Part shown: positions 2,240 to 35,924 of the stretch, in pieces | Position numbering within the stretch: position 1 is the first letter of the stretch | How the letters are laid out: each line of letters begins with the position of its first letter | Assembly (NCBI GenBank): GCA_032718475.1 | Contig: JAUCBJ010008295.1 | Span: forward strand, 62,202 to 126,201 | DNA: 64,000 bases | Origin: Nemertoderma westbladi | Taxonomy: Eukaryota; Animalia; Xenacoelomorpha | Direction of reading: 5' to 3' | Program-made: the position numbers and the translations under genes | The notes under the pieces: model-generated | Database searches by the model: none | What the model was told of the DNA's origin: nothing | The model's input: only the letters and a program-made list of their open reading frames with translations

Positions 2240-3910
2240 TAACTCATATTAATTGGTACTTGTTAATTCCTATGTAACTCATTAATTCATATGTAACTCA
2301 TTAACTCCTACGTAAACTAATTAACTCTATATAACTTTACTCATTAATTCATATGTAACTCATTAACTCTGTGTAACTAATTAACTCCTATATAAATAAT
2401 TAACTCCAATATAACTCATTATATCCTATGTACCTGATTAACTCTATGTAACTAATTAACTCAAGTGTAACTCATTACATCCAATGTAACTCATTACATC
2501 CAATGTAACTCATTACATCCAATATAACTCATTAACTTATATGTAACTCATTATCTCCTATGTAACTAATTACCTCCTATGTAACTCATTAACTCCTACG
2601 TAACTAATTAACTCTATGTAACTCGACTCATTAATTCATATGTAACTCATTAACTCTGTGTAACTCTTTACATCCAATATAACTCATTAACTTATATGCA
2701 ACTAATTAACTCCCATATAACTAATTACCTCCTATATAACTCATTATCTCCTATGTACCTGATTACCTCCTATGTAACTCATTAACTCCTATATAACTCA
2801 TTAACTCTATGTAACTAATTAATTCAAATGTAATTCATTAACTTTGTGTAAATCATTACATCCTATGTAACTCATTAACTCATTGACTCCCATGTAACTC
2901 ATTAAATCCTATGTAACTGATTAACTCATTGACTCCCATGTAACTCATTAACTCCTATATAACTGATTAACTCATTGACTCCCATGTAACTCATTAACTC
3001 CTATGTAACTGATTAACTCATTGACTCCCATGTAACTCATTAAATCCTATGTAACTGATTAACTCATTGACTCCCATGTAACTCATTAACTCCTATGTAA
3101 CTGATTAACTCATTGACTCCCATGTAACTCATTAACTCCTATGTAACTGATTAACTCATTGACTCACATGTAACTCATTAACTCCTATGTAACTAATTAC
3201 CTCCTATGTAACTCATTAACTCCTATATAACTCATTAACTCTATGTAACTAATTAATTCAAATGTAATTCATTAACTTTGTGTAACCCATTACATCCTAT
3301 GTAACTCATTAACTCATTGACTCCCATGTAACTCATTAACTCCTATGTAACTGATTAACTCATTGACTCCCATGTAACTCATTAACTCCTATGTAACTGA
3401 TTAACTCATTGACTCACATGTAACTCATAAACTCCTATGTAACTGATTAACTGATTAACTCATTGACTCCCATGTATCTCATTAACTCCTATGTAACTGA
3501 TTAACTCATTAACTCCCATGTAACTCATTAACTCCTATGTAACTGATTAACTCATTGACTCCCATGTAACTCATTAACTCCTATGTAACTGATTAACTCA
3601 TTAACTCCCATGTAACTCATTAACTCCTATGTAACTGATTAACTCATTGACTCCCATGTATCTCATTAACTCCTATGTAACTGATTAACTCATTGACTCC
3701 TATGTAACTGATTAACTCATTGACTCCTATGTAACTCATTAACTCCTATGTAACTGATTAACTCATTGACTCCCATGTATCTCATTAACTCCTATGTAAC
3801 TGATTAACTCATTGACTCACATGTAACTCATTAACTCCTATGTAACTGATTAACTATTGTGTAACTCATTAACTCCTATGTAACTGATTAACTTATTACC
3901 TCCTTTGTAA
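2240..3910. repeat. AT-rich minisatellite, ~19-bp unit TAACTCATTAACTCCTATG, becoming a ~46-bp compound unit in the 3' half
   Basis: Tandem TAACTCATTAACTCCTATG / TAACTGATTAACTCATTGACTCCCATG units. Confidence 0.95.
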
Positions 3911-4436
3911 CTGCACCAAGCTCTCCCGTCCTCCACAATCCCCATTATCGTATATATTCCCTACGAGAGCCGGAGTAATAAACTGGTGTGGTTCAAACTA
4001 TAGGTAGAAACAAACTGCCAAGAGATCCTCCACTGCCTAGGTGTTCCAGTAACTGCACCAATGCAATCATAGCCAAAAATGTTCATTGATTAAAGTTAAA
4101 TTCAAAGCTGAATATAAGGTTCGCCAGAAGTTGAGATAACATACTATACAGTAACCATAATAAACCTATACATTGGTTGCTACAAACACATACCATAATA
4201 TTATTAATAAAAACTGCTCGTTAATTATATTCATTTTCTTTTATGGCTAAGCAGTATGGAATAAAAATGGCGAACGTGTGATTAACGCCAGTCGAAGGCG
4301 AATTTGATTATTCATCGCTAAAATTGGCAGTCTATGTTCCCTTCGGGTCGCCTCGTCTCAGGCTTTGGGCCAATTGTTTGTTTGATTGATTTGCTTGATA
4401 ATATGCCATTCAGCTGCTCATTTAAGCAAAAAGCAA

Positions 4437-4703: not shown

Positions 4704-5621
4704 TCAAGCAGTTTGTACTGAACCCAAAACTTCGTTGGAACCATTTTCTATAATCTTCTTAACCCGCTGGCGAAATGATTTACTCATGAACACAAAGACT
4801 AGAGGGTTTATACTGAGGTTAATGAGTAGCAATAGGAACATCCAGAATGGTGTAGAGGCGTCTGTGACTACCATCCCGTAAATATTGTCTACCACGTTTG
4901 GTGTCCAACATACGAAGTAAGTAATTCCACACACTATAACTGTGAATACCAAGTTTCGTTCCCTGATGGTGGAGGTGGCGACCCCTAGCGGTGCGACGCG
5001 GTTCCGCAAACGGCGCATCCATCTGTAAATAGCGCCGTAGCAAGCGCACATAATACACAGAGGCACAACCCAGTCATCAGTTATATAAAATATGTTGACT
5101 GCTGTTGTGTAAGAGTAGCTGCTAACATCCAATATGCACTTGTTTTCTTGAGTTACGTTTATAATAGAGTATAGAAATAATTCTTGCGCATTTCCATAAA
5201 TCCAAGCAAACGCTAAAATTGGCACATATACAGCCTTCCCGTTGCTATGGTTACGATGCTTGATAGGATGGCACACGCTAGACCACCTATCCATGTACAA
5301 TAGGTTAAGACTCCAGACAGATGTTTATATGATGCCCCACATTGGAAGACTGCTCCACCACAGCAGGCAGTAGGTGTAGTTACCTGGGTAACCAATGGGT
5401 GTTCGAGTTTTACCTTCTATGCTACTCACTGCAAATATTAATCCGGCCAGCAGGTTTGCCACTGATTGGTTAATCATTATACGATCGGATAACAGATAGG
5501 GAATCTTGGATAGCCAATATATAAATAGGTTAAAACCGTTTATCACCACTGCTAAACAACCAATCAAAGTGTAGATCACAATAATTACAATATTGTCAAA
5601 ATCCATATCGATGAACAACAA
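4704..5621 (-). pseudogene. Intronless class A (rhodopsin-like) GPCR with one in-frame premature TAA in TM3
   Basis: ORFs 5325..5621 and 4704..5300 are in the same frame, separated only by TAA at 5325-5327 (GII*TSVWSLNLLYMDRW). TM1 IGCLAVVING, TM2 NQSVANL, DRW (DRY-like), TM6 YFVCWTP, TM7 NLSINPLVF. Likely ATG at 5606. Confidence 0.85.
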
Positions 5622-6350
5622 TATTGAAATTACGAAACATTGAAATTAAGAAGCATAAAAATGAATAACAATTGCAACTTGAAAATTTAACATTTATTAT
5701 TATATTACTATTACTGTTAGAAGTTCAGTTGAAAGATTGTATATTATTAAGAGAGGATAAGGCCAACACCCACTGTAACATTAACCCGCGGTAGTAGTTG
5801 AGTGTGGCAATAAATAATAAGAAATATTAATAACAACGCATCAGTACCTTGGTTTGGTATGAATTGAGTAGTCCGTTAATACCCACCCGTAATAGCGGGG
5901 GATTTGTTGTTATCACTCCACAACACAAACTTGCAAGGATGTTTTCCCACAAGCTTTATATTAGAGTTGTGTATACTACTTAACTTTAAACCATTTTACT
6001 CGACTTAGCATAGTGTTTTGCTGTTATTTTACCATAGCTTCCGATCTTATACCCATTGGTTTGATTATGGCCTGTTTCTCTTCTATCTTTGTGCAATACA
6101 CAATGAAATGTAATGGAGGTTGCATTTTGTATTCTGCTACTGCTCTGCAGGTGCTGCCGTAGATTTCGCATTGTAACCTCATCAACTTCCTTTAAGAGTT
6201 GCTCCATAAGTGAGTTAGTTAAAATAAATTTAATCACTGAGTTTAATGAACGATTTTAAAGATCATGGGAAGTTAGCTGGATGGCTGATCCTGATAGAGG
6301 CTGTGCACAATTGATTATATACGTAATTGAATGCTCCAGGTGTATATTCA

Positions 6351-6964
6351 ATGCACAATACACGTTGCGGCTAAGTCAACAATGTACAATACATGTTGCG
6401 GCTAAGTCAGCAATCACAATACATGTTACGGCTAAGTCAACAATGCACAATACACGTTACGGCTAAGTCAGCAATGTACAATACACGCTACGGCTAAGTC
6501 AGCAATGCACAATACACGTTACGGCTAAGTCAGAAATACACAATACACGTTACGGCTAAGTCAGCAATCACAATACACGTTACGGCTAAGTCAGCAATGC
6601 ACAATACACGTTACTGCTAAGTCAGCAATCACAATACACGTTACGGCTAAGTCAGCAATGTCCAATACACGTTACGGCTAAGTCAGCAATGTACAATACA
6701 CGTTACGGCTAAGTCAGCAATGCACAATACACGTTACCGATAAGTCAGCAATGCACAATACACGTTACGGCTAAGTCAGCAATGTACAATACACGTTACG
6801 GCTAAGTTAGCAATGCACAATACACGTTACGGATAAGTCAGCAATGCACAATACACGTTACGGCTAAGTCAGCAATGTACAATACACGTTACGGCTAAGT
6901 TAGCAATGCACAATACACGTTACGGATAAGTCAGCAATGCACAATACACGTTACGGATAAGTCA
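6351..6964. repeat. Minisatellite, 30-31-bp unit CAATACACGTTACGGCTAAGTCAGCAATGCA
   Basis: About 20 tandem copies visible. Confidence 0.95.
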
Positions 6965-8213
6965 GGTTTGACATTATGATGAATATTATCATCAATAATG
7001 CGATTGATGCCCATCTATCATCATTGATAAATCATATATAACTTGACATTTAGCCATCGTCGAGAGATCGGTTGTGACTGATCAAACATCGCTAGCGTAT
7101 AATTACTTTACGACTTATAATCTAGAAATAGGTACAACACCTGTAATTGCTATCATCCATACACTATGTAACCGCTGGTGAATGAGAGCCTACCACTTCA
7201 TCCGTTCGTTTCCTATGGATTACAGATGTAAAAGACCTGCCGTATAAAGTTATACATTTTGTACATCCTGTTTTACTTACGTATTTACTTAACATAATAT
7301 TACCATATACGAATAAAAAAAACTACAGCTAAAAGCGATGGAATATTACAAGTATTTCATTGCAGCTAAACTTATAATGCAATACATCATAGCATTGAGA
7401 CATTGTTTTAAAGGCATAGTTTGTTTGTCTCCAGCTGATGTCAGCAATACATACACAAAAAACATGTATAGTGTACACAGATGCCGCTATCCTCAATCAT
7501 GTCAGCTTTGAATCAGGGGGATTATGTTTCAACTATATTAGTTACAGTTTTAAATCATTGTAAAGATCTCGTCTAAAGCTGGTTTTACTTAGCGACTAAA
7601 TTCAGATAGGGGGGAGGGGAAACTGGACGCAATAAAAATTAATCCCTCTCCAGGGGAAATTCGACGCAAATAACAGTTGATTACTCTCAAAAATAAAATT
7701 GTCACCTGTTCTATTGCGTTTAGTTTATTGTTTTGGTTAAAATAACGTGCCACTGTAACCTGCTCCTTTCCCTAAATTGAGAATTTAACATTGAGGCGGG
7801 ATATTAATTCGCCAAGATGGTATTGCCGTCCAGCCCACCCCCCCCCCCCCCCCCCCCCCCTACCCCCCCATGTCTCACTAAATGTCCCCTCTACTGTGAT
7901 ATGTTATCCCTCTGAGTTACAATGTGTTGCTTAACACTAAGGTCGTTAACTACTGTTAAAACTTGGCGATTAAATAGATAGCTACATTACACGCCGTAAA
8001 GTGAATTGCCACACGTTTTATGTTACGCTACCGTAAAGTAACATAAATATTTTATTTTTTGTTTAATTACTTTATTACTTTTGCAGAATATTTCAAAATT
8101 ATTATTCCTTATAATAATTTATTGTAACTTTATCGCTCATACTTTTGTAATTTTAGCTCGATTTCTGACCAACCTGCTTCTTTTACACAATACTTTTCAA
8201 CCAATAAAGAGCG

Positions 8214-8759
8214 TGTGGGAAGGGATTCAAGCAGCCATGAACGTTGGATATTGTGTTGGGTGGGAAGGGATTCAAGCAGCCATGAACGTTGGTTATTGTG
8301 TTGGGTGGGAAAGGATTCAAGCAGCCATGAACGTTGGTTATTGTGATGGGTGGGAAGGGATTCAAGCAGCCATGAACTTTGGTTATTGTGATGGGTGGGA
8401 AAGGATTCAAGCAGCCATGAACGTTGGTTTTTGTGTTGGGTGGGAAGGGATTCAAGCAGCCATTAACGTTGGTTATTGTGATGGGTGGGGAGGGAATTCA
8501 AGCAGCCATGAACGTTGGTTATTGTGTTGAGTGGGGAGGGATTCAAGCAGCCATGAACGTTGGTTATTGTGTTGGGTGGGAAGGGATTCAAGCAGCCATG
8601 AACGTTGGTTATTGTGTTGAGTTGGAAGGGATTCAAGCAGCCATGAACGTTGGTTATTGTGATGGGTGGGAAGGGATTCAAGCAGCCATGAACGGTGGTT
8701 ATTGTGTTGAGTGGGGAGGTATTCAAGCAGCCATGAACGTTGGTTATTGTGTTGAGTTG
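8214..8759. repeat. 45-bp satellite, left arm (interrupted by the LTR element)
   Basis: Unit GGGAAGGGATTCAAGCAGCCATGAACGTTGGTTATTGTGTTGAGT; resumes in register at 36761. Confidence 0.97.
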
Positions 8760-9960
8760 TGTAAAAGCCTTTGCTGAATTGCCCCGTTATTTTTATTATC
8801 TTTTACATTAAAATACTCTGTAGTTGATTTAATAGGTGTAAGAGACCGTATTATTGCTGTATCGGTGTTTTTTAGAGGATCTAAGACCTATTTCCTCTGT
8901 ATGTGTACTGTGAAAGGCATAGTTGATGATTCTATGGCAATTCCATGACGCAAAGGGTGATAGCTACTCTTGAACAGTAGTTACTATGACTACGGTTAAC
9001 AGCTGATATTCATACGTGTTGATTTTCTTTGTTCTACGGCGTCTCTCAGTTCAGTCAGCCAATCAGAGCATTTTTATGGCTCTTGTAGAGAAATTTCCTA
9101 GAAATCACGTAATGCTTTATGTGCAGTGTTTACATTCTGTCCTGAGCCAGGAGAGAGCGGCTTGGAAATATTTTGTGCTGTTCTGTTTTTAGCCTAACAC
9201 TAGTAGGCTTAATTATAAGGACATATATCCGTTATCTCAACTCAAATCATAACATACCATACCTAATCAAACACTGTGCATACTTTATATTGTTATACTG
9301 CTATTTACTGTCGGTCCTTCATAATATGGTTGATGAATTATTATATTTGGAATAACGATAAATAACCCCGAAACCCAATATTCTTGATATACCGAAGGTA
9401 AGAGAGAAAGGTTATATATAACGATTGTGACTTATGTTGAAGTGGTTTGAAGTGAATCTAATGTTATTTGATAGACCCTACATGAGTCGGTCCGTGTTCC
9501 TTTTATATGTGACTAAAATCAGTGAAGATCGGCAGATTAGTCTGCAGTATTGTGCAGCATTGTGTATGAGTGAGACTGATAACGAAGCATTTCCTAAAGA
9601 ATGAGCCATATATGTGAATTATAACTAAGCCATATCGTTGTGAGTAGTTTAAGTCATAACTCTGTTTATATAGATAGAGCGCCACGTCCTAAAGGAACTG
9701 TTAATATTTCCCGAAGGTGAATAATATTGTCAGAGATTATATAATACTGTCAGTCGAATAATACATTAGGCTTACATAGCAATAAGATTAAGCCGTCGAA
9801 CCCAATCTCCCGGGTATATCCAGCGGGTGAATGATCGCGCACAGATTGGTTTCGACTAGTGTAGTGAATCAAATACTTGTCATAGGCTAAAAGTGATTTA
9901 TTATCTAAAAGACATCCTAATTTGGCGGGTTAAACTGCCAAAGGTCTGAAAGCGCGAACA
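8760..9960 (+). repeat. E1 5' LTR (1201 bp)
   Basis: TGTAAAAGCC...GCGCGAACA; near-identical to 23524-23888 + 35925-36760 (about 5 substitutions seen by eye). Confidence 0.97.
9055..9069 (+). promoter_or_regulatory. CCAAT box (NF-Y-type) in the LTR U3
   Basis: AGCCAATCAGAGC is conserved in the otherwise diverged E2 LTR (minus strand near 35593-35605), upstream of the inferred start site. Confidence 0.55.
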
Positions 9961-9972
9961 ATAACGGATATA
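9961..9972 (+). promoter_or_regulatory. Non-tRNA primer-binding site candidate of E1 (self-complementary to LTR 9224-9235)
   Basis: ATAACGGATATA directly after the LTR is the reverse complement of TATATCCGTTAT at 9224-9235; no TGG-initiated PBS follows the LTR. Confidence 0.75.
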
Positions 9973-10027
9973 GCTTCTTTATTGCAGTAAGCAATAAAGT
10001 TGAAAGTACCGGTCAACCGGTAAACCT

Positions 10028-10152
10028 GAACGGTACATCTGTAGGTCAGTAGGCCCAACTGCCAGAACCGGTACTGCCATAGGTCCGTAGGTCCAACTGC
10101 CAGAACCGGTACTTCTGTAGGTCCGTAGGCCCAACTGTCCTAACCGGTACTT
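10028..10152 (+). repeat. ~36-bp tandem repeat in the E1 leader
   Basis: About 3.5 copies of ACCGGTACTTCTGTAGGTCCGTAGGCCCAACTGCCAGA; conserved in E2 at about 34475-34600. Confidence 0.85.
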
Positions 10153-10334
10153 CCAGTATAAGTACATTAGTATTATTCGAATTTGATAATTATATACCGG
10201 TAGGTCTTAGTACTTAATCAGGGAACGGCCGCCCTGGTTTTTTATTGAGATTTTTACTTATTTCTGTCAAGTTTTATTTGTTTGTAGGCCAGTATTGAAC
10301 AGAAGGCGTGTAAGCCTGATCAGATTGTACAGAC

Positions 10335-10905
10335 AATTTGTAGGCTGAGCTGTTGTCTGATTGTTGTTAAGTCTGAACGGATTGCAGTGTGTGTAGATCA
10401 TCTGTCCGATAAAGAACGGTTAGGAAGTAGGGGCAGCCAATGCTGTAAGGTAAACCCCCAACTAAAGAATAAGTCGTACTACTGGGTTAGAACGCATACT
10501 ACCTAATCATTTCGGAGTCTGCATGTCCTGTAGTTTATTTAGGCTTGAGAGTAGTCTGCCATCGTTTAGTCTGTACTTTGTTTGTGTAAGTCTGTACGGG
10601 TAGCGTATAATATTTATTTAGATAATTTGTAGGCTGGATAGTTGTCTGGCTGTTATTAGGTCTGAACGGATTGCAGTGTGTGTAGAGCCTCTGTCCGATA
10701 AAGAACGGTTAGGAAGTAGGGGCAGCCAATGCTGTAAGGTAAACCCCCAACTAAAGAATAAGTCGTACTACTGGGTTAGAACGCATACTACCTAATCATT
10801 TCGGAGTCTGCATGAGCTGTAGTTTATTTAGGCTTGATAGTAGCCTGTCAGTATTTGGTCTGCATTTTGTTTGAGTGGTTTGTACGCGTAGCGTAATATT
10901 TATTA
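10335..10905 (+). repeat. ~290-bp direct duplication in the E1 leader
   Basis: AATTTGTAGGCTG...GTCTGAACGGATTGCAG...CATTTCGGAGTCTGCATG...GTAGCGT occurs twice; E2 has the matching duplication at about 33745-34300. Confidence 0.85.
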
Positions 10906-12215
10906 TTCAGAGTTTATGCGATTATTCGCAACATTCATTCCCCAAGTTTGTTCCTACAATAATTGTGTTTGTTATACATACCGTTATAGTTAAATTAACC
11001 CCGGTACTACACGGGCTGCTTGGCGTAGGTAAAGACTGGTGATTTTGTGCACCGGTCACTCCAGCAGATGCCGTGGTTCTTTTAGCTGTTCAAGTATATT
11101 TAACTACTGATTATATGTTGTACAAGTACTCGTACCTAATTTAGGGTTTAGTATACAGTGCTTTCCGAAAGTAATTAGTGTAGGCATTATATTTGTGTTG
11201 TAAAGTGGTTGATAGGCACGTTCGATTAGCTCTATTAACTTCTAGGTAGGAACACTCCGTGATACATAACGTAGTACCTATAGCGATACGGCTATAGGTC
11301 GTCAGGCGGTGGTATTTTCCTATCTGGACAACGCAGTGTATTTACTACTACGTATTATTTTCAAATACCGCAGTACCCTGTCCGTTGTAATAACCAGAAT
11401 TCTAACCCTTTGTTAGGCTGGTTTGTAGACTTCTTGTAAAATTACCCTGAAAATTCGTATTTTGTGTTTTTGTAAATTTTTGTGTTTATTTAGAGATTGT
11501 AATCTCACCCGAATTGTACGTAATTTGTAGTATTAAGTAACTTAGGTAAATTAGTATTATTTGTTTTAGTGTCTTATAAGTAACACTTCACTGAAAGCGC
11601 ACCGCTTTGTGTAGTGATTACTCCCCATAAATAATAACATTTATTTCAAACATCGACAAAACCCATTAAAACGGGTATATATATATTATAAATCAAATCT
11701 AACGATTTATAAATAGTAGGCCTACCATACAACCATTAGGTCTCAATATCAGTTGGATTACTGCTCAAATAACGGTAATAAAGTAAGTAAAGTAACCAAG
11801 TAACCCTAAAATTCAGAAATTCAATTATTTAAAATAATTGATATACCGGTATTTACGATAGGCCTATTATCTTTATTTCTATAAGTTTCGGCTGAAATTA
11901 TACCGGTACTTGTAATTAATTCTAGTCCAGAATTATATATACTATAAACTGTAAGCTGTATACCGGTATTCCCGATAGGCCTATTATATATTTATATACA
12001 TTTGTGCTAAAATTATACCGGTATTCTGTGATAAACCTAGTCTGTAATAATACTTATATATACAATAAGCATACCGGTATTCTAATATATTATATATATC
12101 ACGCTACACTGAGTAGCAGTATCGGTAATTAATTACTAGGCTAGCAGTTAACACTGAATTACTAGACTTGCTTAGACTGTAATATAGCGGTAGACATTCA
12201 ACTGTGTAAACAAAC

Positions 12216-15200
12216 ATGTCTGATACTAAGCAGAACTTGTCAGACAGTTTATTAGATGTAACTATCTGCGACTCAGATAGAGGTGTAGAACCGTCTAGTC
12301 CTAAGTTCAGTTCACCTCCCACTGTGAGGAAGGTCATCCCTCCTGTAGTAATAACAGAACCTAGTCTGGTCCAACATCGTAGGTCTATCATAGGCACTCG
12401 AGCTCAGGTCAAGCGGGACCAAGAAGCAGCGGAACAGCAACAACCCGCGAGCCAAGAACTTATTTCTCAGCGGCCCGACAGCTCCAGTAGTGAAGATACG
12501 GTAGAACTGATACCCGAACGCGGAGCAAGGATGACGGACGAGGCTTATTCAGATCCCCTTCTCATCCTTCCTGCAGCCGTACTCACTAGGTTATTGATCG
12601 CTGTGGAAGAACACCAGATCGATTGGGCGAGAAGCCAGCGTTCAACTAGAGATAGTTATGCTGGATACACAAGGGAAGAACTGAAGTCCATGGTCGAGTC
12701 GCAATGGAACTTCCCCGGACCCGGACTCCCGTTTGATTTATCAGAAGCTGCCTGGGAAGACATACACCGGATGGGAGTAGCCAAGGAAACCATCGATCCA
12801 GCTGTGTGGAAGAGGTCCGCAGCCGGATACGCACAGGGATTCTTCAACTCTATGGAGAGAGTAGAAAAACAACTGTTACAACAACCTCAAGGACCTCAAG
12901 AGCAGGGACAGCTGCTTTATCAAGTTAGAGAAAGAATTCTGCGAATTAGGCTAATATTATCAGCCTTTGAAGAGGCTTCTAAAAGAAGACAAGACACGTC
13001 GTTGCAAGTTGCCGTAAAGACTTGGTTTCAACGGGTGAGTCGCCAAGTTCAAGGAACAGCTCAGTGGAAAGCTCAGCTGGAGGAGCGCTCAACCCATGGA
13101 GAATCAACAGACGCTACTTTTTCCCAAGTGGAAAGTGAAGCGACGGCAGAGAAGCCGCATAAGAGGGATGCCATTGACATCTATCTGTCAGACTATCAAC
13201 GTTTTTTAGGTGATGACGAGTTGAGGAGAAGGTTAGAGGGACTTAGCCCTAATAGTGAAGGAACCAAGCTTGTGTTGGATGCCATTGATGTGGAAATGAG
13301 GGCTGCGAATCAGGCTAAATTTGATGAACAACTCCGCATCACACGAGTCCAAGAAGAACAAGTAAAGAAAAAACGTATAGAAGACAGAAAGAAAGCAGCA
13401 GTGGTAGCTGCAGAAGCAGAAAGAAAAGCGGCAGCGGCAGAGGCAGCGGCAGAGGCAAAAGTGGCAGAAGCAGAACGGAAAGCGGCTGAAGAAATCACCC
13501 AATTAGAATTGGAAAACATTCAGGAGAATCAAGACTGCATAAATAAACAGTTAACAGCTAGTAATATGCAGATGATGAATCGATCTACTCCCAAAAGGCA
13601 GGGATATACATCATCTGAGGAAGGCGATACCACCGACACTGAAGGCGGAGGAAATCGATCTCGCCTAAGCAGACGTAAAAGAACATTCCACCGTCAGAAA
13701 TTGCCTGATTTGCCTCCAGCTGTTAGAAGGCAACTAAATAACACCAACTTAGCGAGTACAGAACCCACAGACCAAATAATTACAATAGAGAGACTCCCTA
13801 CTATAGTAGATGAGCCTGAAATAATTAGGCCTGTTCCCGAAGCTACCCTTTCGTTCGTAGAGACACCTGTACTCCCTGAACCTACCTCTCAATTCCCGTT
13901 GCACAGCACTAAGCTACCTGTGCCCAGTAGAACAGCCCATGAGACAGTTCATGCTCTGGACTCCGAGCGGAATGTTCATGATTTGTCGCCTGTTGTCCCT
14001 CGTCCGCCCGCTACAACGTTGGCGGATCCCGTTTCGGCGGTTGATTGGGTGGACGAGAGACGGCGGGGGATGGACATTCTCCTCGGAAAGATGGAGGAGA
14101 ATCAAAGGCGCTCCTCCCAACAGGTCCGAGAGTTAGAAGGGACTGTTCAACAGTTAAAGGGAACCGTAAAGGAAAGTAGGTTAGAGTTGCAGGAAGTGCA
14201 GCAAAATATCGCGTTAGAACGTGATAAATTAGTAAATTTACAAAAGGGTATACCACCACCCCTTGTAACAATGTGTCAACCTGTTAGGTCTGAAGTATCT
14301 CATGCGCAAGGTGTGGAGCCTACACGCATCTATACTGCTAGCGAAGTAGAAACTCCTATAGTGAACCCTATTAAGGGTAATTATAGACCTGTTGATAATG
14401 ATATTCCATATAGAACGGATCATAATCCGAGAAATTTATATACCGATAACTCGATATTAAATAACACGATGGCCCAAGAAAGTTTTACGCGTCAAATGGC
14501 TAGAACCGAAGCCCGGCAAGCTGTAAAGGTGGGAGAGATTGTAAAGTTCAATGGAGATGAGATGAAATGGTTACCTTTTAATGAATATTACAAAGATAAC
14601 ATACAGAACTATGTGCTATCTAATGGAGAGAAACTTAGATACCTCATCGAATGCTTGGAAGGATCTCCCAAGTTAATGGCATTAAAGTTTATTGGACATC
14701 CAGACGGATTAAGACAAGTTTGGGATACACTAAACATCAGGTATGGTAATAGGAATAACATAGCTGGGTATTTGTATGCAAAGTTGGTAGCGCCCCGAAA
14801 GTTTATTAGCAGCGGAATTATCGAGTTTTCCGATGAGATTCAGGAGATCTGTAGACAATTAGATTGGCTAGGTAAGTCTCAGGAGTATCAGAATGCTATG
14901 GTTATTAGAGCAGTGGCTTCTACTTTACCGAAGGGTGGAGTAGGTACACGCTGGGATAAGAAAGTGTTATATATGATGGAACAACAACGACGAGACCCTA
15001 CCATGGCTGATCTAATGTCATTCCTAGATGGAGAAGTGAAATTACAGCTCCTGAAACTGTCCAGAGAGAAGACACCGGAAAACAAGGTAAGTGAAAAACC
15101 CGTCTCTAGGAGAAAGGTAACACCAGTGTGTTATACAGACGACGGCGAAAGCCAGACTTCTCAAGGAGAAGATAGCGGAAAAGACACTGATAGATCTTAT

Positions 15201-18200
15201 TACGTAAATAAAATGCCTAAAGATCAGGTAAGTAAATTCAAGTCTCGAACAAATGACAGGAGAGAACAGGTAAGAAAAACTCCTCCTACGTCTCCCAAGA
15301 GAATTCAGGTGAGAAAGCCCGAAGAAAAAGCAAGTGTACACAATGTGACTCAGAGTAAGGTGAGTAACATCAAACCGAAATGTGCGCTGTGTGACGGGAC
15401 CCACCATTTGAATATGTGTGATAAATTCCTGAAGAAGTCATTAACGGAGAGACGTGAAGTCATGTGGGACAAGCGGTTGTGTTATAATTGCCTCAGACAA
15501 GGACATCAACGGCGAACCTGTTACTCAGACATAAGGTGTGCAAAGTGTGGTGCGAAACATCATATCTTGTTGCACGCTGAATTCGATCGAAATAGTCCTA
15601 ATCAGGTAAGTGATTCCGAACTACATGTCCAATTCAGTGATGTGAACGACACTGATCAATCTGAGATGGAAGGATTCTATACGGACGAGTTCTCCGACGA
15701 AAACGAATCCTGTTACATGATAAATACCGCAGTGTATCGAGCACTCACATATGAAAAAGATACAGACAGCGACTTCACTCTAACTACTTCTGAGCGACAA
15801 CCATCGTGGAAAGCACCAACTTCCAATGTAGGAATCCGAGAATTTCCTGTAGTCCAGTTACGGGTCCATGGACCTCAGAAGAGCTATATAGTGAACGCCC
15901 TCCTGGACTCCGGCAGCACAGGAACATTCATTGATAAAGAACTAGCCGAAGACATCTTCGCTGGACAACCTAAGTTCCGAACCAAGCTAAATATGTCAGG
16001 CATTATGCAAGTTTGGAAATCTACAGTAACAGCTGATTATTATGTAGGCGCGTTGTCCACCCCACAAGACGAACTAGGAGAACATAGCATAAGGTCGGTG
16101 AAAATGGTGGCTATAAAGAACTTCGCTACTACTCAAGCAGACCTTTATAATTGGGACGAGGATGAGAGCATCCAACATCTTAAGATACCTCGATTCCAGA
16201 CTGATTATCCTGGAGTGCAAATACTCATCGGCCAAAACGCGCATGAGGCGCTGGAGACATTGGAGAAACGGCCTGCTCAACCGCAGCCACTACAGACCTA
16301 TGCGGTAAGAACTAGAGTAGGTTGGTACTTTACTGGCCCTTCCCGTAGAACACTCAGAGAAAGACTACCGCAAGAGCGCGTCTACCAGGTGAGTGAATGG
16401 GAAGATGATACTAGTGAGGGAGACGATTTAACTGAGGGAACCCCATACTCCTCAGATAACGACGACGTTCACCAGCTTTTTGATGAGGAGAATACCATCG
16501 ATCTCCTTAAGGAAAACGAGGCTTGGCAAAACCAAGTGAACTTATGTCAACTTCTTTATCCAACTGAACGAGAAGCTTATAACGACGAGTTAAATGACGT
16601 CATTGAGCGTTGTAATGCCAAGACTCGAGATGAACATGCCGTAAGATTCTTTACGCAAGAGGCGGTAGAGCCCAATTCCTACGATAAAGCCTTGTCGGTG
16701 GAAGAGGAAAGGGCCAAGCAGATCCAAGAGACAACTACACGTTTCCTCAAAGATCAAGGTAGGTATGAAGTCGGTCTACCTTTCCGCAAGAGAGAACCGA
16801 AGTTCATCAATAACAGACCCTTGGCGGAAAAAAGAATCGCGCAACTCCATCGACGCCTTACGGCTAATTCTTCAGCTAAAGCAATGTATCAAACACAGCT
16901 GGAGAAATTTATTAGTAAGGGATACGCGGAGAGAGTACCGGAAGAAACACCTGTGACTGAAAGAACGTATTACTTAACTCACCATTACGTTCCTAAACCC
17001 GGTAAGCCACATGAAGTGAGAGTAGTGTTTGATGGCTCCGCTCTTTACATGGGTCAATCCCTTAACTCTGAATTGTTACCCGGACCCAACTTACTTCAAT
17101 CTTTGTTGGGAATTCTTTTAAGATTGAGACAATATTCGATTGCTTTCGCCTCCGATATAGAAGGCATGTTCTTACAAGTCAAGGTGTTAGATAGGGATCG
17201 AGATAGTTTACGATTTCTGTGGTGGCCCGAAGGAGACCTCAACATGAAACCGGTGGAGTACTGGATGACCATCCAGGCCTTTGGGATAATCTCAAGCCCT
17301 TCCAACGCCTGTTCGGTAGTGCGTACCACTGCAGAGGACAACCGAGAGGCCTTCTCTAAGGAAGTGATCGACAACATCAAGCGAGACATATACATGGACG
17401 ACAATCTGAAGTCCCTTCCATCAGTTGAGGAAGCCATTGAGGTCGCTAAAGGAACGGTAGAGTGCTTAAAAAGAGGTGGGTTTCGATTAACGAAATTCAC
17501 CAGCAACTCCCGTGAGTTTCTGGAGTCGATCCCTGCGGAAGATCGAGGGGCGAAAGATCTAGATTTGATCAAAGATGATCTGCCAGAAACCAAGACACTC
17601 GGCTTGAAATGGGACACAGAGCGAGATATCCTGTTTTTCCAGCTAAAACAGCGAGATAATCCAGTTCGAACCAAACGGATTTGCTTAAGTATACTGAGCA
17701 CTTATTTCGATCCATTGGGATTTATTAGCCCAGTTATATTGATTGCTCGTAGTTTGGTACAACAAATGTGGCTTGAAAACCACTCATGGGACGATCCACT
17801 TAAGGGAGAATTATTAAAGAAGTGGATGAAATGGGAAGATTCTCTGCCGGCTATCGAGGATTTTATAATTTCCCGTTCATATTTTGGTCATGTTCTCCCT
17901 ACGTATTCCTATCAACTCCATGTGTTTGGAGACGCCAGCGATATGGGAATAGGTATAGTAGCCTATCTAAGAGTGGAAACTCCGGATGGAATCAAAGTCG
18001 CCTTAGTTACTTCTAAGGCATTAATCAACAACAAGTTGAAAGTTCCTCGAGCGGAGTTAAAAGCGGCTCTATACGCTACAGCCATCGGCCGGAATGTAAC
18101 AGAACAGATTGACTATCCATTAGAGAAAACTGTCTATTGGACCGACGCTTTACTCGTGTTAGAGTATATAACCAATGAAGTCTGTCAGTTCAGCGTCTTC

Positions 18201-20276
18201 GTTACCAACAGAGTAGCCATCATACTTAGTCGCACGACGATGGACCAATGGAGACATTGCCCCGGAACGATTAATCCAGCAGACATCGCCTCCCGAGGAG
18301 CGACTCCAAAGGAATTGGTAAATACTCCCGAATGGTTAGGTGGACCCGACTTTCTCTACAGAGAAGAAGAAGAATGGCCTCCCCATCTCACAACAGCAGA
18401 GATCAGACAGGCCAAGGGAGCGGAGAAAGTTAAACCCAAAACTCGAGCGAGTAAATCGAAGTTGTTTAAACCTGCGGTTGATCTATCTGTATTATTTACT
18501 TCCGGAGAGGATGCTTTGGATCAGAAACCCACAGCCACGGATAAAGAAGTCTTAGAAATCCGTGACAAGGATTGGAAATCTGGAATACCAGATATTTCGC
18601 AAGGACTCTCACCTCTCTTGCAGAGAGTGATACGTCATTACAGTTCCTGGAATCGGCTCTGTAAAGCCGTCACCTATTTAAAACGATGTTTTCATCATCG
18701 TTACTCCGGGACAAAGACCAATAGTGATGATGCTCCATCAACATCTGCAAGAGTCCATGTTGTTAAAGATCTTCCTAAATATAAGATATCCGACAGGTTT
18801 CTAAAGGAGAAGATCAGTTACCAGGAGCATGATGAAACCAACAAACAGATGCTGAGACTCCTACAATGCTATGAGGATCCCGATAAGTATTTCCTGTTGT
18901 TAAGAAATCCGCAGATGCGCTTAAGGGATCGCTTCTCTAGTACCATGATAGATGGGTTAATACGTGTTGGAGGCAGGCTCACCAACGCCCCCTTATCCTT
19001 TGACACTAAGTTTCCCATACTCATTAGAAATCTTGACATACAAATCAAGATGATTGTAGATGTTCATAGCAAACTGTATCATGCTGGAAGAGAACGAGTT
19101 CTGAGCGAAATTCGAACTCGCTACTATTTTTATAAACCCCGTAGGGCTCTGAACCAAGTCCTTAGGAACTGCATACCCTGTAGGAAAGCATTCAGTAGGC
19201 CTTTGACACAGCGAGAGGCAGAATTACCTAGGGAAAGAGTAAGCTTCTATGAACCACCCTTTACTAATACCGGTGTGGATTTATTTGGCCCTATTGAAGT
19301 ATATCGTGCCCGGACTATAGTCAAGAGATGGTGTGTCATCTTCGTTTGTATGACTTGTAGAGCTATCCATCTCGATATGGTAAACGATCTATCCACCAAC
19401 AGCTTCGTGTTGAGTTTACGACGACAGATCGCTCGCTTCGGAACCAGTAACACGATGAGATCGGATAAGGGAACGAACTTCATTGGCGCCAACAACGAAA
19501 TTCAAGCTTTCGTAAAGGACTGGAACAAAAGACAGGTGGACGATCAGCTAAGGATAACAGCGTCTAGCTGGACCTTCAACGCCGCCGACGCCCCTTGGTG
19601 GGGAGGAAGTTGGGAGAGATTGATTAGGAGCGTGAAGACTGCGTTCCACTTTATTGTGCCTTGTCGCGCTTATCTCACCGACGAACTATTGCGGACGTTA
19701 ATGGAGGAAATCGCCGCTTATCTCAACGAAAGACCGCTTATGCCAGTCTCTTCAAGTCCTGATTCCCTGGAAGCGCTAACACCCGCGCACTTTCTACTGA
19801 AGAAACCCGTAGCCATGCTCCCACGATCGGAGATCACAGACGGAGACGAGTACTGCCGTCGAACCTGGCAACTTATGCAGTTGCTATCCCGTCGTTTCGC
19901 TGACCATTTCGAGAAACATTACCTGCCCACTCTACAACTTCGAACTAAGTGGTTTGCGCAGCAAGAAAACGTCAGCGCTGGAGACATGGTGCTTATTGTG
20001 GACCCCGATCTCCCACGTAAGCGATGGCAAACAGGACGTATCATCGAGACTCATATCTCGAGCGATGGTTTGGTGCGATCAGTAGAACTCGTCGTCATGC
20101 GGCGTAACTTTAAGAAACCAGGGATAGTCTTTGAGACTCAACAGCTCAACCGCCCAGTGGGTCGTTTATGTTTACTGGAAAGAGACAGAGAGCTCTCCGG
20201 AAACTATGGAAGGCAAGAAACTCTTCCCACGACCACTTCCCTAATCCAACCGACATCTAGGGACTCCCCAACTTAA
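12216..20276 (+). CDS. BEL/Pao Gag-Pol polyprotein (2686 aa)
   Basis: Gag core FNGDEMKWLPF, triple knuckle CALCDGTHHLNMC / CYNCLRQGHQRRTC / CAKCGAKHHILLH, protease ALLDSGST, RT VRVVFDGS..DIEGMFLQ..YMDD, Pao-type RNase H LHVFGDAS..PRAEL..WTDA..NPADIASRG, integrase H..H..CIPC, GVDLFGP, RSDKGTNF, GGSWERLI, C-terminal WQTGRI. Confidence 0.97.
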   Translation: MSDTKQNLSDSLLDVTICDSDRGVEPSSPKFSSPPTVRKVIPPVVITEPSLVQHRRSIIGTRAQVKRDQEAAEQQQPASQELISQRPDSSSSEDTVELIPERGARMTDEAYSDPLLILPAAVLTRLLIAVEEHQIDWARSQRSTRDSYAGYTREELKSMVESQWNFPGPGLPFDLSEAAWEDIHRMGVAKETIDPAVWKRSAAGYAQGFFNSMERVEKQLLQQPQGPQEQGQLLYQVRERILRIRLILSAFEEASKRRQDTSLQVAVKTWFQRVSRQVQGTAQWKAQLEERSTHGESTDATFSQVESEATAEKPHKRDAIDIYLSDYQRFLGDDELRRRLEGLSPNSEGTKLVLDAIDVEMRAANQAKFDEQLRITRVQEEQVKKKRIEDRKKAAVVAAEAERKAAAAEAAAEAKVAEAERKAAEEITQLELENIQENQDCINKQLTASNMQMMNRSTPKRQGYTSSEEGDTTDTEGGGNRSRLSRRKRTFHRQKLPDLPPAVRRQLNNTNLASTEPTDQIITIERLPTIVDEPEIIRPVPEATLSFVETPVLPEPTSQFPLHSTKLPVPSRTAHETVHALDSERNVHDLSPVVPRPPATTLADPVSAVDWVDERRRGMDILLGKMEENQRRSSQQVRELEGTVQQLKGTVKESRLELQEVQQNIALERDKLVNLQKGIPPPLVTMCQPVRSEVSHAQGVEPTRIYTASEVETPIVNPIKGNYRPVDNDIPYRTDHNPRNLYTDNSILNNTMAQESFTRQMARTEARQAVKVGEIVKFNGDEMKWLPFNEYYKDNIQNYVLSNGEKLRYLIECLEGSPKLMALKFIGHPDGLRQVWDTLNIRYGNRNNIAGYLYAKLVAPRKFISSGIIEFSDEIQEICRQLDWLGKSQEYQNAMVIRAVASTLPKGGVGTRWDKKVLYMMEQQRRDPTMADLMSFLDGEVKLQLLKLSREKTPENKVSEKPVSRRKVTPVCYTDDGESQTSQGEDSGKDTDRSYYVNKMPKDQVSKFKSRTNDRREQVRKTPPTSPKRIQVRKPEEKASVHNVTQSKVSNIKPKCALCDGTHHLNMCDKFLKKSLTERREVMWDKRLCYNCLRQGHQRRTCYSDIRCAKCGAKHHILLHAEFDRNSPNQVSDSELHVQFSDVNDTDQSEMEGFYTDEFSDENESCYMINTAVYRALTYEKDTDSDFTLTTSERQPSWKAPTSNVGIREFPVVQLRVHGPQKSYIVNALLDSGSTGTFIDKELAEDIFAGQPKFRTKLNMSGIMQVWKSTVTADYYVGALSTPQDELGEHSIRSVKMVAIKNFATTQADLYNWDEDESIQHLKIPRFQTDYPGVQILIGQNAHEALETLEKRPAQPQPLQTYAVRTRVGWYFTGPSRRTLRERLPQERVYQVSEWEDDTSEGDDLTEGTPYSSDNDDVHQLFDEENTIDLLKENEAWQNQVNLCQLLYPTEREAYNDELNDVIERCNAKTRDEHAVRFFTQEAVEPNSYDKALSVEEERAKQIQETTTRFLKDQGRYEVGLPFRKREPKFINNRPLAEKRIAQLHRRLTANSSAKAMYQTQLEKFISKGYAERVPEETPVTERTYYLTHHYVPKPGKPHEVRVVFDGSALYMGQSLNSELLPGPNLLQSLLGILLRLRQYSIAFASDIEGMFLQVKVLDRDRDSLRFLWWPEGDLNMKPVEYWMTIQAFGIISSPSNACSVVRTTAEDNREAFSKEVIDNIKRDIYMDDNLKSLPSVEEAIEVAKGTVECLKRGGFRLTKFTSNSREFLESIPAEDRGAKDLDLIKDDLPETKTLGLKWDTERDILFFQLKQRDNPVRTKRICLSILSTYFDPLGFISPVILIARSLVQQMWLENHSWDDPLKGELLKKWMKWEDSLPAIEDFIISRSYFGHVLPTYSYQLHVFGDASDMGIGIVAYLRVETPDGIKVALVTSKALINNKLKVPRAELKAALYATAIGRNVTEQIDYPLEKTVYWTDALLVLEYITNEVCQFSVFVTNRVAIILSRTTMDQWRHCPGTINPADIASRGATPKELVNTPEWLGGPDFLYREEEEWPPHLTTAEIRQAKGAEKVKPKTRASKSKLFKPAVDLSVLFTSGEDALDQKPTATDKEVLEIRDKDWKSGIPDISQGLSPLLQRVIRHYSSWNRLCKAVTYLKRCFHHRYSGTKTNSDDAPSTSARVHVVKDLPKYKISDRFLKEKISYQEHDETNKQMLRLLQCYEDPDKYFLLLRNPQMRLRDRFSSTMIDGLIRVGGRLTNAPLSFDTKFPILIRNLDIQIKMIVDVHSKLYHAGRERVLSEIRTRYYFYKPRRALNQVLRNCIPCRKAFSRPLTQREAELPRERVSFYEPPFTNTGVDLFGPIEVYRARTIVKRWCVIFVCMTCRAIHLDMVNDLSTNSFVLSLRRQIARFGTSNTMRSDKGTNFIGANNEIQAFVKDWNKRQVDDQLRITASSWTFNAADAPWWGGSWERLIRSVKTAFHFIVPCRAYLTDELLRTLMEEIAAYLNERPLMPVSSSPDSLEALTPAHFLLKKPVAMLPRSEITDGDEYCRRTWQLMQLLSRRFADHFEKHYLPTLQLRTKWFAQQENVSAGDMVLIVDPDLPRKRWQTGRIIETHISSDGLVRSVELVVMRRNFKKPGIVFETQQLNRPVGRLCLLERDRELSGNYGRQETLPTTTSLIQPTSRDSPT

Positions 20277-21110: not shown

Positions 21111-21921
21111 TTTAATTATCAAATAATAAAATTTCAGGGAATAAATTTAAATTCATGCCTTTTAATGAATTTAATAAATTGCCATTTTTACGCAATTTAT
21201 AACATTCCCAAAATTCCATTAATTAATAGATCAAGGGAGCGGAGATTTGTCTTATTATGAGTATGAGTGTGCGAAAGTCTCCCAAACATGGTCAATAGCC
21301 GATAAAATTCATAAAGTCATGTATCAAACAGGACATTGACTATTAAAGAATTACTATTAAATAACATCCCAGATCTGTATGCATGGGAATTACTCTAATT
21401 CTACCGCTAGCTTTGCATAATGTCACCATGGCAACAACCACGCTAGAATTAGAATTGAGTTAAAAGAACAATAGAAAGCTTGTCCCATTGAATAGCATAG
21501 GGAATAAATAGCGCACTGCTAGTATCCAAGGATACATAATAATACAGTGACATTCTGGAAGGCATTGACTAACGGACAAATGGCCCGAATGTGCGTAGTT
21601 GTGACCAGTTGTGTGGTATTTGTGAGTTTATAGGTGAATGTTACTGCTAAAGTGTGTTTACAGTAGCTAGTCGCAATCGTGAAAGTAACCTAACTCTCCA
21701 AGGAAAACCTGAAGTACATCTAAGCCTTTGGGACAGACAGTGGAGTGACTTGTGCCGGTTGTCGTTGTCGTTGTGCGGCTACGTCGTTGGCGAAAGTACG
21801 GCGGCGACGACACATCGGCGCTGAGGATCTCGCACTGTCCGGGGGCTGATTGGGGTAGGCAGCGACGCCCGCTCGCCTAAATATAAACTCATTATAATAT
21901 GGATAAATTTATATAGCAGAT

Positions 21922-23052
21922 ATGATTGAGTTGATAGAAGATGATCTTGGTATCAGGGAGCGATATACTCTACCTTTACAAGCGTTTGTTGATAGCTTGA
22001 TACATGGCGACGCTGGTCCAACTGCTACGGAGGACGATGATCGTTATATCGAACCGCCAATGTCCCAAGAGCAGCTCACGCGTGAGTTGGACTATAAGAA
22101 ATTCACCGCTCGCTATACGCATCGTAATGGTACGTATGTGGACTTCTTAACTACTGGTCATCCTATCGATTTACACGATACGGACAATGTCGACACCAAA
22201 AGGGAAATGGTACGATTGAAATATCCTACCCAGCGGAGGCGGAACGATAAACCGAGAATGGAACACGAGAATTCTATTCGAATCAGACTCGAAAGAGAAG
22301 ACGTTGAGGAGCCGGATAAACGCAGCGACTTCAACGATTATCTGGAATTCCTGATAGAAACATATCTCAATATTGCCAGTCAACAAAATCTAGAAACTCA
22401 ATATCATCAAGGTATACATCATGACCGCATGGTAGAACTCAAATGGCTCGATTCCCCTATGATGTATCTTACCGCCGATCGACCGCTACCTGTTGTACCG
22501 AATAGCTTCGAACGGATGGAGGAATATTGTAAGCTGGAGAAAGATCACTCGCGTTTCCCCTATAAGACGTACGTTTTTGGGTATTATTGCGATGAATGCC
22601 CAAGACCCAACCAACAAACGGAAAGACATAAACATCCGCGGAGACGTTGCTTTAAACACGGTTTTACTCGCTATACTTACAGGAGTTTCGAGCGAAACTT
22701 GTTCAATGTATCACCTACGCTCGTTCGACTCAGACGATCCTTAAATAAACCAATGATCAGAGTTTCGGAATACTCGATCAGAGCTCCTCATTCCCTAGTG
22801 AGACCTCAGACTCTTGATCCTATTAGTATGACGGATCCTCCCGAGCTGTACTCACTGCTCAAAGATCTAGTGTTACCTGAACGATTAGTCGGTGGCACCC
22901 CAGTTGTGGGTTTCTTAGATATTAGCCCATCCTACCTAGCCGGATTGGGACGCGGACATTTAATATCGTCGTTTAACCCTTACCATCGTCCCGGCTTGAC
23001 ACGATATAACCTGTCACCAGAGTGGCGGAGAACGTTGTACCAAACGAGTTAA
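21922..23052 (+). CDS. E1 accessory ORF2, 376 aa, unknown function (no signal peptide or TM segment seen; Cys/His cluster)
   Basis: Long ATG ORF in the env position; first ~120 aa conserved with E2 ORF 26111..26509; YCDEC..HKHPRRRCFKH motif; preceded by TAGCAG|ATATG in both elements. Confidence 0.75.
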   Translation: MIELIEDDLGIRERYTLPLQAFVDSLIHGDAGPTATEDDDRYIEPPMSQEQLTRELDYKKFTARYTHRNGTYVDFLTTGHPIDLHDTDNVDTKREMVRLKYPTQRRRNDKPRMEHENSIRIRLEREDVEEPDKRSDFNDYLEFLIETYLNIASQQNLETQYHQGIHHDRMVELKWLDSPMMYLTADRPLPVVPNSFERMEEYCKLEKDHSRFPYKTYVFGYYCDECPRPNQQTERHKHPRRRCFKHGFTRYTYRSFERNLFNVSPTLVRLRRSLNKPMIRVSEYSIRAPHSLVRPQTLDPISMTDPPELYSLLKDLVLPERLVGGTPVVGFLDISPSYLAGLGRGHLISSFNPYHRPGLTRYNLSPEWRRTLYQTS

Positions 23053-23513: not shown

Positions 23514-23523
23514 CTGGGAGCGG
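23514..23523 (+). promoter_or_regulatory. E1 polypurine tract
   Basis: CTGGGAGCGG immediately before TGTAAAAG of the 3' LTR; identical in E2 (25143-25152, minus). Confidence 0.8.
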
Positions 23524-23888
23524 TGTAAAAGCCTTTGCTGAATTGCCCCGTTATTTTTATTATCTTTTACATTAAAATACTCTGTAGTTGATTTAATAGG
23601 TGTAAGAGACCGTATTATTGCTGTATCGGTGTTTTTTAGAGGATCCAAGACCTATTTCCTCTGTATGTGTACTGTGAAAGGCATAGTTGATGATTCTATG
23701 GCAATTCCATGACGCAAAGGGTGATAGCTACTCTTGAACAGTAGTTACTATGACTACGGTTAACAGCTGATATTCATACGTGTTGATTTTCTTTGTTCTA
23801 CGGCGTCTCTCAGTTCAGTCAGCCAATCAGAGCATTTTTATGGCTCTTGTAGAGAAATTTCCTAGAAATCACGTAATGCTTTATGTGC
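23524..23888 (+). repeat. E1 3' LTR, left fragment
   Basis: Matches 8760-9124; ends at TGTGC (E2 TSD). Confidence 0.96.
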
Positions 23889-25142
23889 TGTACGCGCTTT
23901 TGGAAGACCTTTAGCAGTTTAACCTGCCAAAATTTATATGTCTTTTGGTTTATCAATATACTTTAGAAGATGACAAATATTTAATACCAATAAACACAAC
24001 ATTAGCAGAAGCCAGCCTAGTGCGCGTCCATTCACCCGCTGGATATTCCCGGGAGACTGGATTCTGAGGGCTTAGATTATTATTGCAGTGAAGCTTACTG
24101 TATTATTCGATTGATCGTTAATAAATAATTTCTGACTAATATTATTCACTTTCGGGAAATATTAACAGTTCCTTTAGGACGTGGCGCTCTATCTAAGTAA
24201 ACAGAGATATGACTTATACTAATCACAACGGTAAGTCGGTAAGGCTTATGATTCACGTATGAGGCGCATTCTTTAGGAAATGCTTAGTTATCGGTCACAA
24301 TCATGCACACTACCGGTAACACACAATACTGCTCATTAATTTGCCGCCCGTCAATGTATTTTATCATATATAAAGGGAATAGCAACGGACCAATGTAGTG
24401 CTTATCAAATAGCATTAAATTCACTACAAACCACAACAATATAAGTCGCAATCGCTATATATATAACCCGTCTCTCTAACCTGTAGTGTATCAAGAAAAT
24501 TGGGAAATTTGGGTTCTTTATATATGTTCTCCAAATAATATTCAACCAAACACAACAGTAAATAGCAGTATAATAATGTATGTTGAACAGTAATAACAAC
24601 AAAGTATTGAATTGTGAATGGATTTGACTGATAACAGCCATACGCTCTATAATTTAAGCCTACTAATGTTTCTTCTTAAAGTATGAAAAGAATTAACTCT
24701 AGAGCCGGTGTTTCTGGCTTAGACAGCAATAACAACAAAGTACCAAGTAAAAAACAGTAAGACTGAACACTCTCCTTATGATCGGCCGAAAAGCTACACG
24801 TCGACAGGAAAAATCGCTCTGATTGGCTCAAGCCAAACAAAGAACCATGCGTCCAATGGCTGTTTCCATGTCAGCAACCAGCTGTTAGATGTCGTAATAT
24901 GAATCATCACGGCTAAGCTGTGAAAGGTAGTTGGTGCATTGCAGGCTTTTTGCCTTACCATGTCCGCCAAAACACGTATATAGCAGAATGACTTTTATGT
25001 CCGTTAAAACACCTGTAACGGTACCTTGAGGGCGAGGGGAATATTTATACAGTTAGAGAACCTTTTTAGAGTATTCCAGCGCCTGGGGGGAAACTGGATT
25101 GCGAAGCAAAAGGGCCAGTTATATCCCACAGAAGCTTTTACA
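23889..25142 (-). repeat. E2 3' LTR (1254 bp)
   Basis: Minus strand TGTAAAAGCTTC...GCGCGTACA, preceded by the PPT; about 4 differences from 34666-35919 seen by eye. Confidence 0.96.
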
Positions 25143-25220
25143 CCGCTCCCAGAAAATGGGATTTGAGTCTATACAATATACAAAATCACAGTTTCTAATA
25201 TACGTAAATACTCTAAACAG

Positions 25221-35919: not shown

Positions 35920-35924
35920 TGTGC

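Follow-up and report, generated by a model that had tools for sequence, protein, structure and literature searches.

How does an LTR retrotransposon begin minus-strand DNA synthesis when no site for a tRNA primer follows its 5' long terminal repeat (LTR)? The question is raised by a window of 64,000 nucleotides from Nemertoderma westbladi (the whole stretch of DNA analysed here), which holds two related BEL/Pao-type LTR elements. We call them E1 and E2. E2 lies on the minus strand and is nested in the 3' LTR of E1 (Table 1). The initial annotation had proposed that neither element has a tRNA-type primer-binding site (PBS), and that each primes with a short segment of its own LTR instead.

Results

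Two nested BEL/Pao elements

The single Gag-Pol frame of E1 contains DUF1759, three zinc knuckles, protease, reverse transcriptase (RT), RNase H, integrase and DUF5641. Pfam matches are PF05380 (Peptidase_A17, E 9e-36), PF18701 (DUF5641), PF03564 (DUF1759) and PF17921 (Integrase_H2C2). A protein search returned 770 homologues, the best of them 42-45% identical and with the same domains. The nearest named proteins come from marine invertebrates (echinoderms, corals, a ribbon worm, a mussel and a tunicate). The first assignment to BEL/Pao thus stands, on BEL/Pao-specific Pol domains and on homologues. Motifs within protease, RT, RNase H and integrase were labelled by their usual forms. The RT motif of E1 reads YMDD (17391); among related loci, YVDD makes up 78 of the motif hits.

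E1 shares with the Belpaoviridae the Pfam signature, one Gag-Pol frame with the order PR-RT-RH-IN, and TG...CA LTRs (PMC8742986). It differs in size and in priming. The family profile gives genomes of 4.2-10 kb and an 18-nt PBS for tRNA-Arg or tRNA-Gly (PMC8742986), whereas both elements here are longer (Table 1) and have no tRNA PBS. E1 and E2 are BEL/Pao by Pol and lie outside the priming described for the family. According to the same profile, replication of BEL/Pao elements is poorly understood; tRNA priming is assumed there (PMC8742986).

Table 1. Coordinates of E1, E2 and their features within the window
Feature	Position	Strand	Remarks
E1	8760-36760	+	interrupted by E2; ~16 kb without E2
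E1 5' LTR	8760-9960	+	1201 nt, TG...CA; 5 differences from 3' copy
E1 target-site duplication	8755-8759 (left), 36761-36765 (right)	+	5 bases, within 45-nt tandem array
CCAAT box	9057-9066 (E2: 35605, minus)	+	conserved in E1 and E2
Conserved block upstream of segment	9196-9220	+	76% identity to E2; ends in TATA-like word 9213-9219
E1 candidate self-primer segment	9224-9235	+	3' LTR copy at 36024-36035
44-nt block	9674-9717 (E2: ~34968-34925)	+	98% identical in E2; pyrimidine tract and AG before, GT after
LTR arm of predicted U5-leader helix	9754-9764	+	partner 10170-10180; 13 bp in E2
5' arm of predicted U5-IR-like helix	9832-9840	+	3' arm is last 9 nt of LTR (9952-9960)
Predicted U5 hairpin	9921-9942	+	8 bp; two one-sided changes in E2 keep pairing
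E1 primer-binding position	9961-9972	+	complement of 9224-9235, no TGG
Predicted hairpin just 3' of PBS	9977-9999	+	9 bp, identical in E2
Leader arm of predicted U5-leader helix	10170-10180	+	
E1 single Gag-Pol reading frame	12210-20276	+	2688 codons, first ATG 12216
E1 second reading frame	21907-23052	+	381 codons, before 3' LTR
E1 purine-rich tract	23516-23523	+	abuts 3' LTR; same in E2
E1 3' LTR, first piece	23524-23888	+	interrupted by E2
E1 3' LTR, second piece	35925-36760	+	
E2	35919-23889	-	12 kb
E2 target-site duplication	23884-23888 and 35920-35924		5 bases
E2 3' LTR	23889-25142	-	1254 nt
E2 internal region	25143-34665	-	without equivalents of E1 16466-18242 and 18431-20135
E2 primer-binding position	34655-34665	-	complement of 35418-35408
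E2 5' LTR	34666-35919	-	1254 nt; 4 differences between the two E2 LTRs
E2 candidate self-primer segment	35408-35418	-	

Both are young elements. Long internal stretches of E2 are 82-87% identical to E1, and two stretches of E1 are missing from E2 (Table 1). The first encodes RT and most of RNase H, the second integrase. Deletion joints like those of E2 are present in contigs of run X1; because similar joints recur there, E2 is taken to represent a non-autonomous subfamily. In that run 814 contigs matched, in a pattern like that of multi-copy DNA, and GT..AG was found at 0 of 15 joints among those listed.

The leader is 3 kb long and holds 18 ATGs. Positions 10031-10155 carry repeats of 38-41 nt in which a six-base palindrome is frequent (95% identical in E2), and 10331-10904 is a 289-nt tandem duplication. 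These are possible dimerisation or packaging signals. The second reading frame of E1 gave no Pfam family, no Atlas match and no tblastn match in 93 related loci; its residues 3-130 are retained in E2 at 82% identity.

The sequence after each 5' LTR is complementary to a segment of that LTR

The first TGG after the 5' LTR lies at +275 in E1 and at +273 in E2, which bears out the missing tRNA-type PBS. Instead, the 12 bases that follow the E1 LTR are the exact reverse complement of a segment inside it, and the 11 bases that follow the E2 LTR are the exact reverse complement of the homologous E2 segment, both as first described. In E1 as in E2 the complement begins immediately after the terminal CA, a boundary set independently by LTR ends and target-site duplications. 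Between E1 and E2, 3 of 11 pairs are changed on both sides and 0 of 11 are broken, in agreement with the compensation originally claimed for these homologous sites. The single A>G change reported in the 3' LTR copy of E2 (24641-24631) is also there, and it leaves a G-U pair. Swapping partners shortens the match to 7 bases (E1 LTR with E2 PBS) or 6 (the reverse). The segment is 73% identical between the elements and the surrounding LTR 74-77%. Segment identity is no higher than that of its surroundings, and therefore pairing is what is kept.

Such a match could be a chance product of AT-rich DNA that both elements inherited. GC content is ~37%, and the 9.5-kb interior of E2 holds 5 unrelated 11-base complements to the LTR. 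However, a match this long at offset 0 occurred in only 12 of 20000 Markov-shuffled LTRs for E1 (6e-4) and 16 of 20000 for E2 (8e-4). The covariation count for E1 and E2, with two sequences only, is not significant (35 of 500 shuffles as high). Chance is contradicted by the fixed offset of 0, by the three double-sided changes and by recurrence of the arrangement in 10 of 12 related families, set against swap and shuffle controls (below). We consider it very improbable.

On 9190-10010 there are 58 contigs of run X1, one of which has two PBS changes (9961 and 9965). Depth at the primer segment is only 6-8, with no variant row, and is too thin to judge covariation.

Two further candidates were rejected. 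A tRNA-Asn-like half was considered for the E2 segment, and the E1 variant does not fit it. Extension of the duplex upstream to 9207 was dropped, the partner being in a local 9-bp hairpin with a predicted probability of 0.9-1.0. ARAGORN found 0 tRNA genes within the 64-kb window, and Rfam gave 0 matches in 8700-12300.

In LTRs of this group, part of the PBS is often repeated in direct orientation at a site between primer segment and LTR end (9578-9583 in E1; also in loci L004, L017, L028, L061 and L066). In a consensus fold of E1 and E2 this copy pairs with the 3' half of the segment. The modelled pairing is a possible alternative fold that would hide the segment in the 3' LTR.

Predicted RNA structure and the site of transcription start

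Several helices are predicted around the PBS. The U5-IR-like helix has 8 pairs, with one compensatory change between E1 and E2, and the U5-leader helix measures 11-13 bp across both elements. All told, the helices around the PBS comprise 47 pairs, 100% of them standard in both. Tf1 of fission yeast needs a three-duplex structure around its PBS, according to the available part of the source (PMC10085805). Compared with this "pretzel", the layout from our two sequences has the central duplex and a PBS-adjacent U5 stem; the third helix lies 200 nt downstream and is not adjacent.

Pairing of segment and PBS depends on where the modelled RNA begins. In E1 the predicted probability is 0.82-1.0 for starts at 9212-9226, and in E2 it is 0.20-0.65 for starts at 35431-35417. 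For starts at least 20 bases upstream it is at most 0.11 in both elements. These models favour a start within ~15 bases upstream of 9225. The primer may be longer than 11 bases, a capped fragment of which only the last 11-12 bases would be paired. When the leader is included to 10260, predicted pairing is 0, because the crossing U5-leader helix cannot be co-modelled; long-range folding predictions of this kind are weak evidence.

Promoter motifs were also compared. The CCAAT box that had been described as conserved upstream is indeed present in both elements, at ~165-185 bases from the segment. In both elements a TATA-like word precedes the segment, by 11 bases in E1 and 10 in E2, and it is a poor match to the TATA consensus. 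Were it a working TATA box, transcription would start near 9244, downstream of the segment, and the self-priming model would fail. Among 16 related loci (below) a TATA word is at -31/-29 in one (L001), at -49 to -138 in four and absent in 11, so that a TATA box spaced as a start at the paired segment would require is found in 1 of 16. The start at 9225 that was proposed initially is compatible with the modelled folding and unsupported by promoter motifs.

A 44-nt block in the LTR (Table 1) has ~tenfold higher contig depth in run X1. It could represent a small exon used in a subgenomic RNA, or else an RNA element, for instance for packaging. A donor-like site lies upstream of it, at 9398.

Most related families have the complement across a predicted intron

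An alignment of the E1 RT-RNase H region with 39 homologues was used as query for relatives. We collected 93 loci, 79 from metagenomes (from the best 80 of 537) and 14 from prokaryote assemblies. Of these, 47 have long direct repeats. We kept 16 whose repeat stops at a terminal CA, fixing where the 5' LTR ends; the other 31 were dropped because they are cut by contig ends or degenerate. The 16 loci make up 12 families with 30-44% RT-RNase H identity, and several come from similarly named contig sets, which are not independent host samples. A 26-base conserved LTR word had 0 metagenome matches, and no relatives were found in a viral contig set.

TGG is missing after the LTR in 15 of the 16 loci. 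A self-complement of 10-15 bases, its letters differing each time, starts 0-3 bases after the LTR in 14 loci from 10 of the 12 families. In 13 of these 14 (9 families) it exists only when a GT[AG]AG...YAG intron of 71-451 nt, located in the LTR and with a GTAAG or GTGAG donor and a pyrimidine-rich acceptor, is left out. In L022 the complement is contiguous, as in E1 and E2. L085 has no TGG and a complement of only 8 bases; L088 (30% identical, from a Wolbachia assembly) has TGG and no complement. The paired PBS starts with GT or AT in 16 of 19 related rows, and with AT in E1 and E2. In the related loci of the blind scan (below), segment start and LTR end are 71-509 nt apart, compared with a loop of ~725 nt in E1 and E2.

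Swaps of PBS and LTR between families reached 10 bases in 8 of 294 cases, 6 of them among three related families that share a PBS. Between L080 and L082 the junction pairing is altered on both sides, and swapping drops the match from 11 to 8. A blind scan for splice-junction complements found them in 13 of 72 upstream regions and in 0 of 144 shuffles. Contiguous complements occurred in 21 of 144 shuffles (6 at 11 bases or more). Because of these shuffle hits, and because they have no independent LTR end, L020, L025, L029, L038, L044 and L064 are contiguous candidates only. The same arrangement in relatives, together with the swap and shuffle controls, strengthens the self-priming reading first put forward for E1 and E2.

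A splice-built primer was rejected within E1 and E2 themselves, where the best spliced matches are not longer than the contiguous ones and the acceptors are non-homologous. E1 and E2 are intron-less members of the group. A quick tree of 42 rows (LG+G4, midpoint root) groups E1 with marine-invertebrate rows, separate from the two most distant rows (support 100); its branch is long and its place among the relatives uncertain. Contiguous forms take 4 changes on this tree and occur intermingled with spliced ones; of the eight contiguous labels, six are candidates only. The intron would therefore have been lost or gained more than once.

The offset of the PBS from the LTR and the gap after the purine tract are both zero in E1, E2 and L066, and discordant in L022. 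A correlation between the two is only suggestive.

The pairing could instead be a structural switch, acting in packaging, dimerisation or translation control, with priming left to a split tRNA site, a tRNA half or a protein. The long leader with its many ATGs and the other conserved long-range helices would suit such a role. Some fungal Copia elements do have a hairpin in place of a PBS, with a mechanism given as not known in the available text (PMC5445492). Against this, the edge of the duplex is at most 3 bases from the LTR end in 14 of 14 matching loci and in E1 and E2, and PBS letters vary between families such that no single tRNA explains them. A spliced leader that was copied through would, moreover, lose its intron. 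We regard a switch as unlikely.

Discussion

A model for self-priming

On the sequence evidence above, E1 and E2 probably prime minus-strand DNA with a fragment from the 5' end of their own RNA, which would be released by a cut immediately 3' of the paired segment in the manner of Tf1. Transcription would start at or shortly upstream of 9225 in E1 and 35418 in E2. The segment would then fold onto the PBS, aided by the U5-IR-like stem and the flanking hairpins. The element's RNase H would cut after 9235 (E1) or 35408 (E2). RT would extend the cut end through U5 and R and then jump to the 3' LTR, which would supply everything upstream of the cut. The putative catalytic motifs of both RNase H and RT are present in E1. 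E2, lacking RT and integrase, would have to be copied in trans, using a primer/PBS pair of its own.

In most relatives the paired segment would be formed by removal of the intron from the 5' copy. Since that complement exists only after splicing, it would have to act in RNA. If spliced from the leader and still inherited, the intron should lie outside the stretch copied from the 5' end. It is also present in the 3' LTR copies of relatives. A cut 3' of the junction would explain this, whereas read-through copying of a spliced leader would not. Lying upstream of the cut, the intron would be templated from the unspliced 3' LTR and so survive. Pairing at the junction only, as read from these loci, favours Tf1-like cleavage priming.

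The primer might be the element's own sequence and still come from elsewhere, namely from the 3' LTR copy, a second packaged RNA or a short LTR-derived transcript. The segment is present in both LTRs (Table 1), the cis loop is long, and the TATA-like word would put the segment upstream of the start. In relatives, however, the complement requires splicing and the templating 3' copy must retain the intron, which points to the 5' copy. Cutting the 3' copy would also sever the template. E2 has a substitution in its 3' copy and none in its 5' copy, a weak point that rests on one change. We judge a source other than the 5' copy improbable.

Priming by the spliced or contiguous 5' copy allows a broader reading, towards which we lean slightly. 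A widespread marine-invertebrate BEL/Pao clade would have abandoned tRNA priming altogether, with the spliceosome building the primer in most families and the intron lost, or never gained, in E1, E2 and a few other lineages. Self-priming would then have arisen independently for a third time, and this would be the first case known in which reverse transcription depends on splicing for its initiation. Only the spliced 5' LTR copy would pair with the PBS, marking the correct end for cutting. The 3' copy, needed to template the intron, would be spared.

Comparison with known self-priming elements

As far as the available portions of the sources go, self-priming is proven only in fission-yeast Tf1 and is predicted for Tf1 relatives and one plant Copia lineage. 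RNase H cuts the Tf1 RNA between bases 11 and 12, according to the accessible text (PMC7175516). Self-priming is reported for Tf1/sushi and for plant Tcn1, and predicted for TAR, in the parts seen of PMC6317226 and PMC4600332.

Like E1 and E2, the Tf1/Tf2/Tj1, Tf1/sushi and Tcn1 elements are described in the available sections as having no tRNA PBS and a PBS next to the 5' LTR that complements ~11 bases of their own LTR (PMC10085805, PMC7175516, PMC4600332, PMC6317226). Duplexes between PBS-adjacent and LTR sequence flank the PBS in the Tf1 group as well, in the portions at hand. The Tf1 group are Ty3/gypsy chromoviruses, whereas E1 has a Pol of BEL/Pao type in which Pfam found no chromodomain. 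E1 and E2 further differ in their 1.2-kb LTR and ~725-nt loop. Start site and RNase H cut are proven in Tf1, by the same partial sources, and predicted from sequence in E1 and E2. The relatives of E1 and E2 build the paired segment across an intron, a feature absent from the cited Tf1-group descriptions as far as these were available. E1 and E2 are not members of the Tf1/sushi group.

In the TAR lineage of Ty1/copia (Houba, Osr-1), self-priming is predicted where the LTR complement has 10 or more bases and starts 0-5 bases after the LTR, in the available text of PMC6317226. The complements of E1 and E2 fall within these values. TAR nevertheless belongs to another superfamily and to plant hosts, and in that text its self-priming is a prediction only. 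Fungal GalEa Copia elements resemble E1 and E2 in having no PBS and a conserved hairpin (Conserved Hairpin Site) by the 5' LTR, judging from the portion seen (PMC5445492). The GalEa authors did not find an LTR complement, in that same portion, whereas E1 and E2 have one that covaries.

Searches of the openly available literature turned up no account of self-priming in BEL/Pao elements and none of a primer built by splicing. Within what is openly searchable, the absence of earlier BEL/Pao reports noted initially is therefore upheld. PBS and tRNA have 0 occurrences in the available main text of four BEL/Pao surveys (PMC3118150, PMC554778, PMC6238403 and PMC8556966), whose supplements may bear on the point. 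The accessible parts of PMC8220671, PMC3601003, PMC5445492 and PMC9873768 contain nothing on BEL/Pao priming. What we describe is probably a known mechanism in a new setting, with an independent origin.

If the model is true, self-priming in a large animal BEL/Pao clade would be either a further independent origin or the ancestral state. It would explain why annotation tools that depend on a PBS miss such elements. Through the splice-junction form, initiation of reverse transcription would be linked to splicing. Each related family would serve as a natural compensatory variant.

Other observations

The 14 loci from prokaryote genome assemblies (L080-L093) are animal BEL/Pao elements in 14 contigs and most likely reflect host contamination. 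L088, with paired LTRs and its TGG site, lies within a 1.4-Mb Wolbachia chromosome record.

A 45-nt tandem array (8215-8754 and 36765-40575) forms the insertion site of E1, and L080 likewise lies in a tandem array. The window has further arrays at 2263-3913 (period 19/46), 6349-6965 (31 nt) and 47696-49459 (period 10). An open frame on the minus strand (4704-5324) matches rhodopsin-family 7TM receptors (PF00001).
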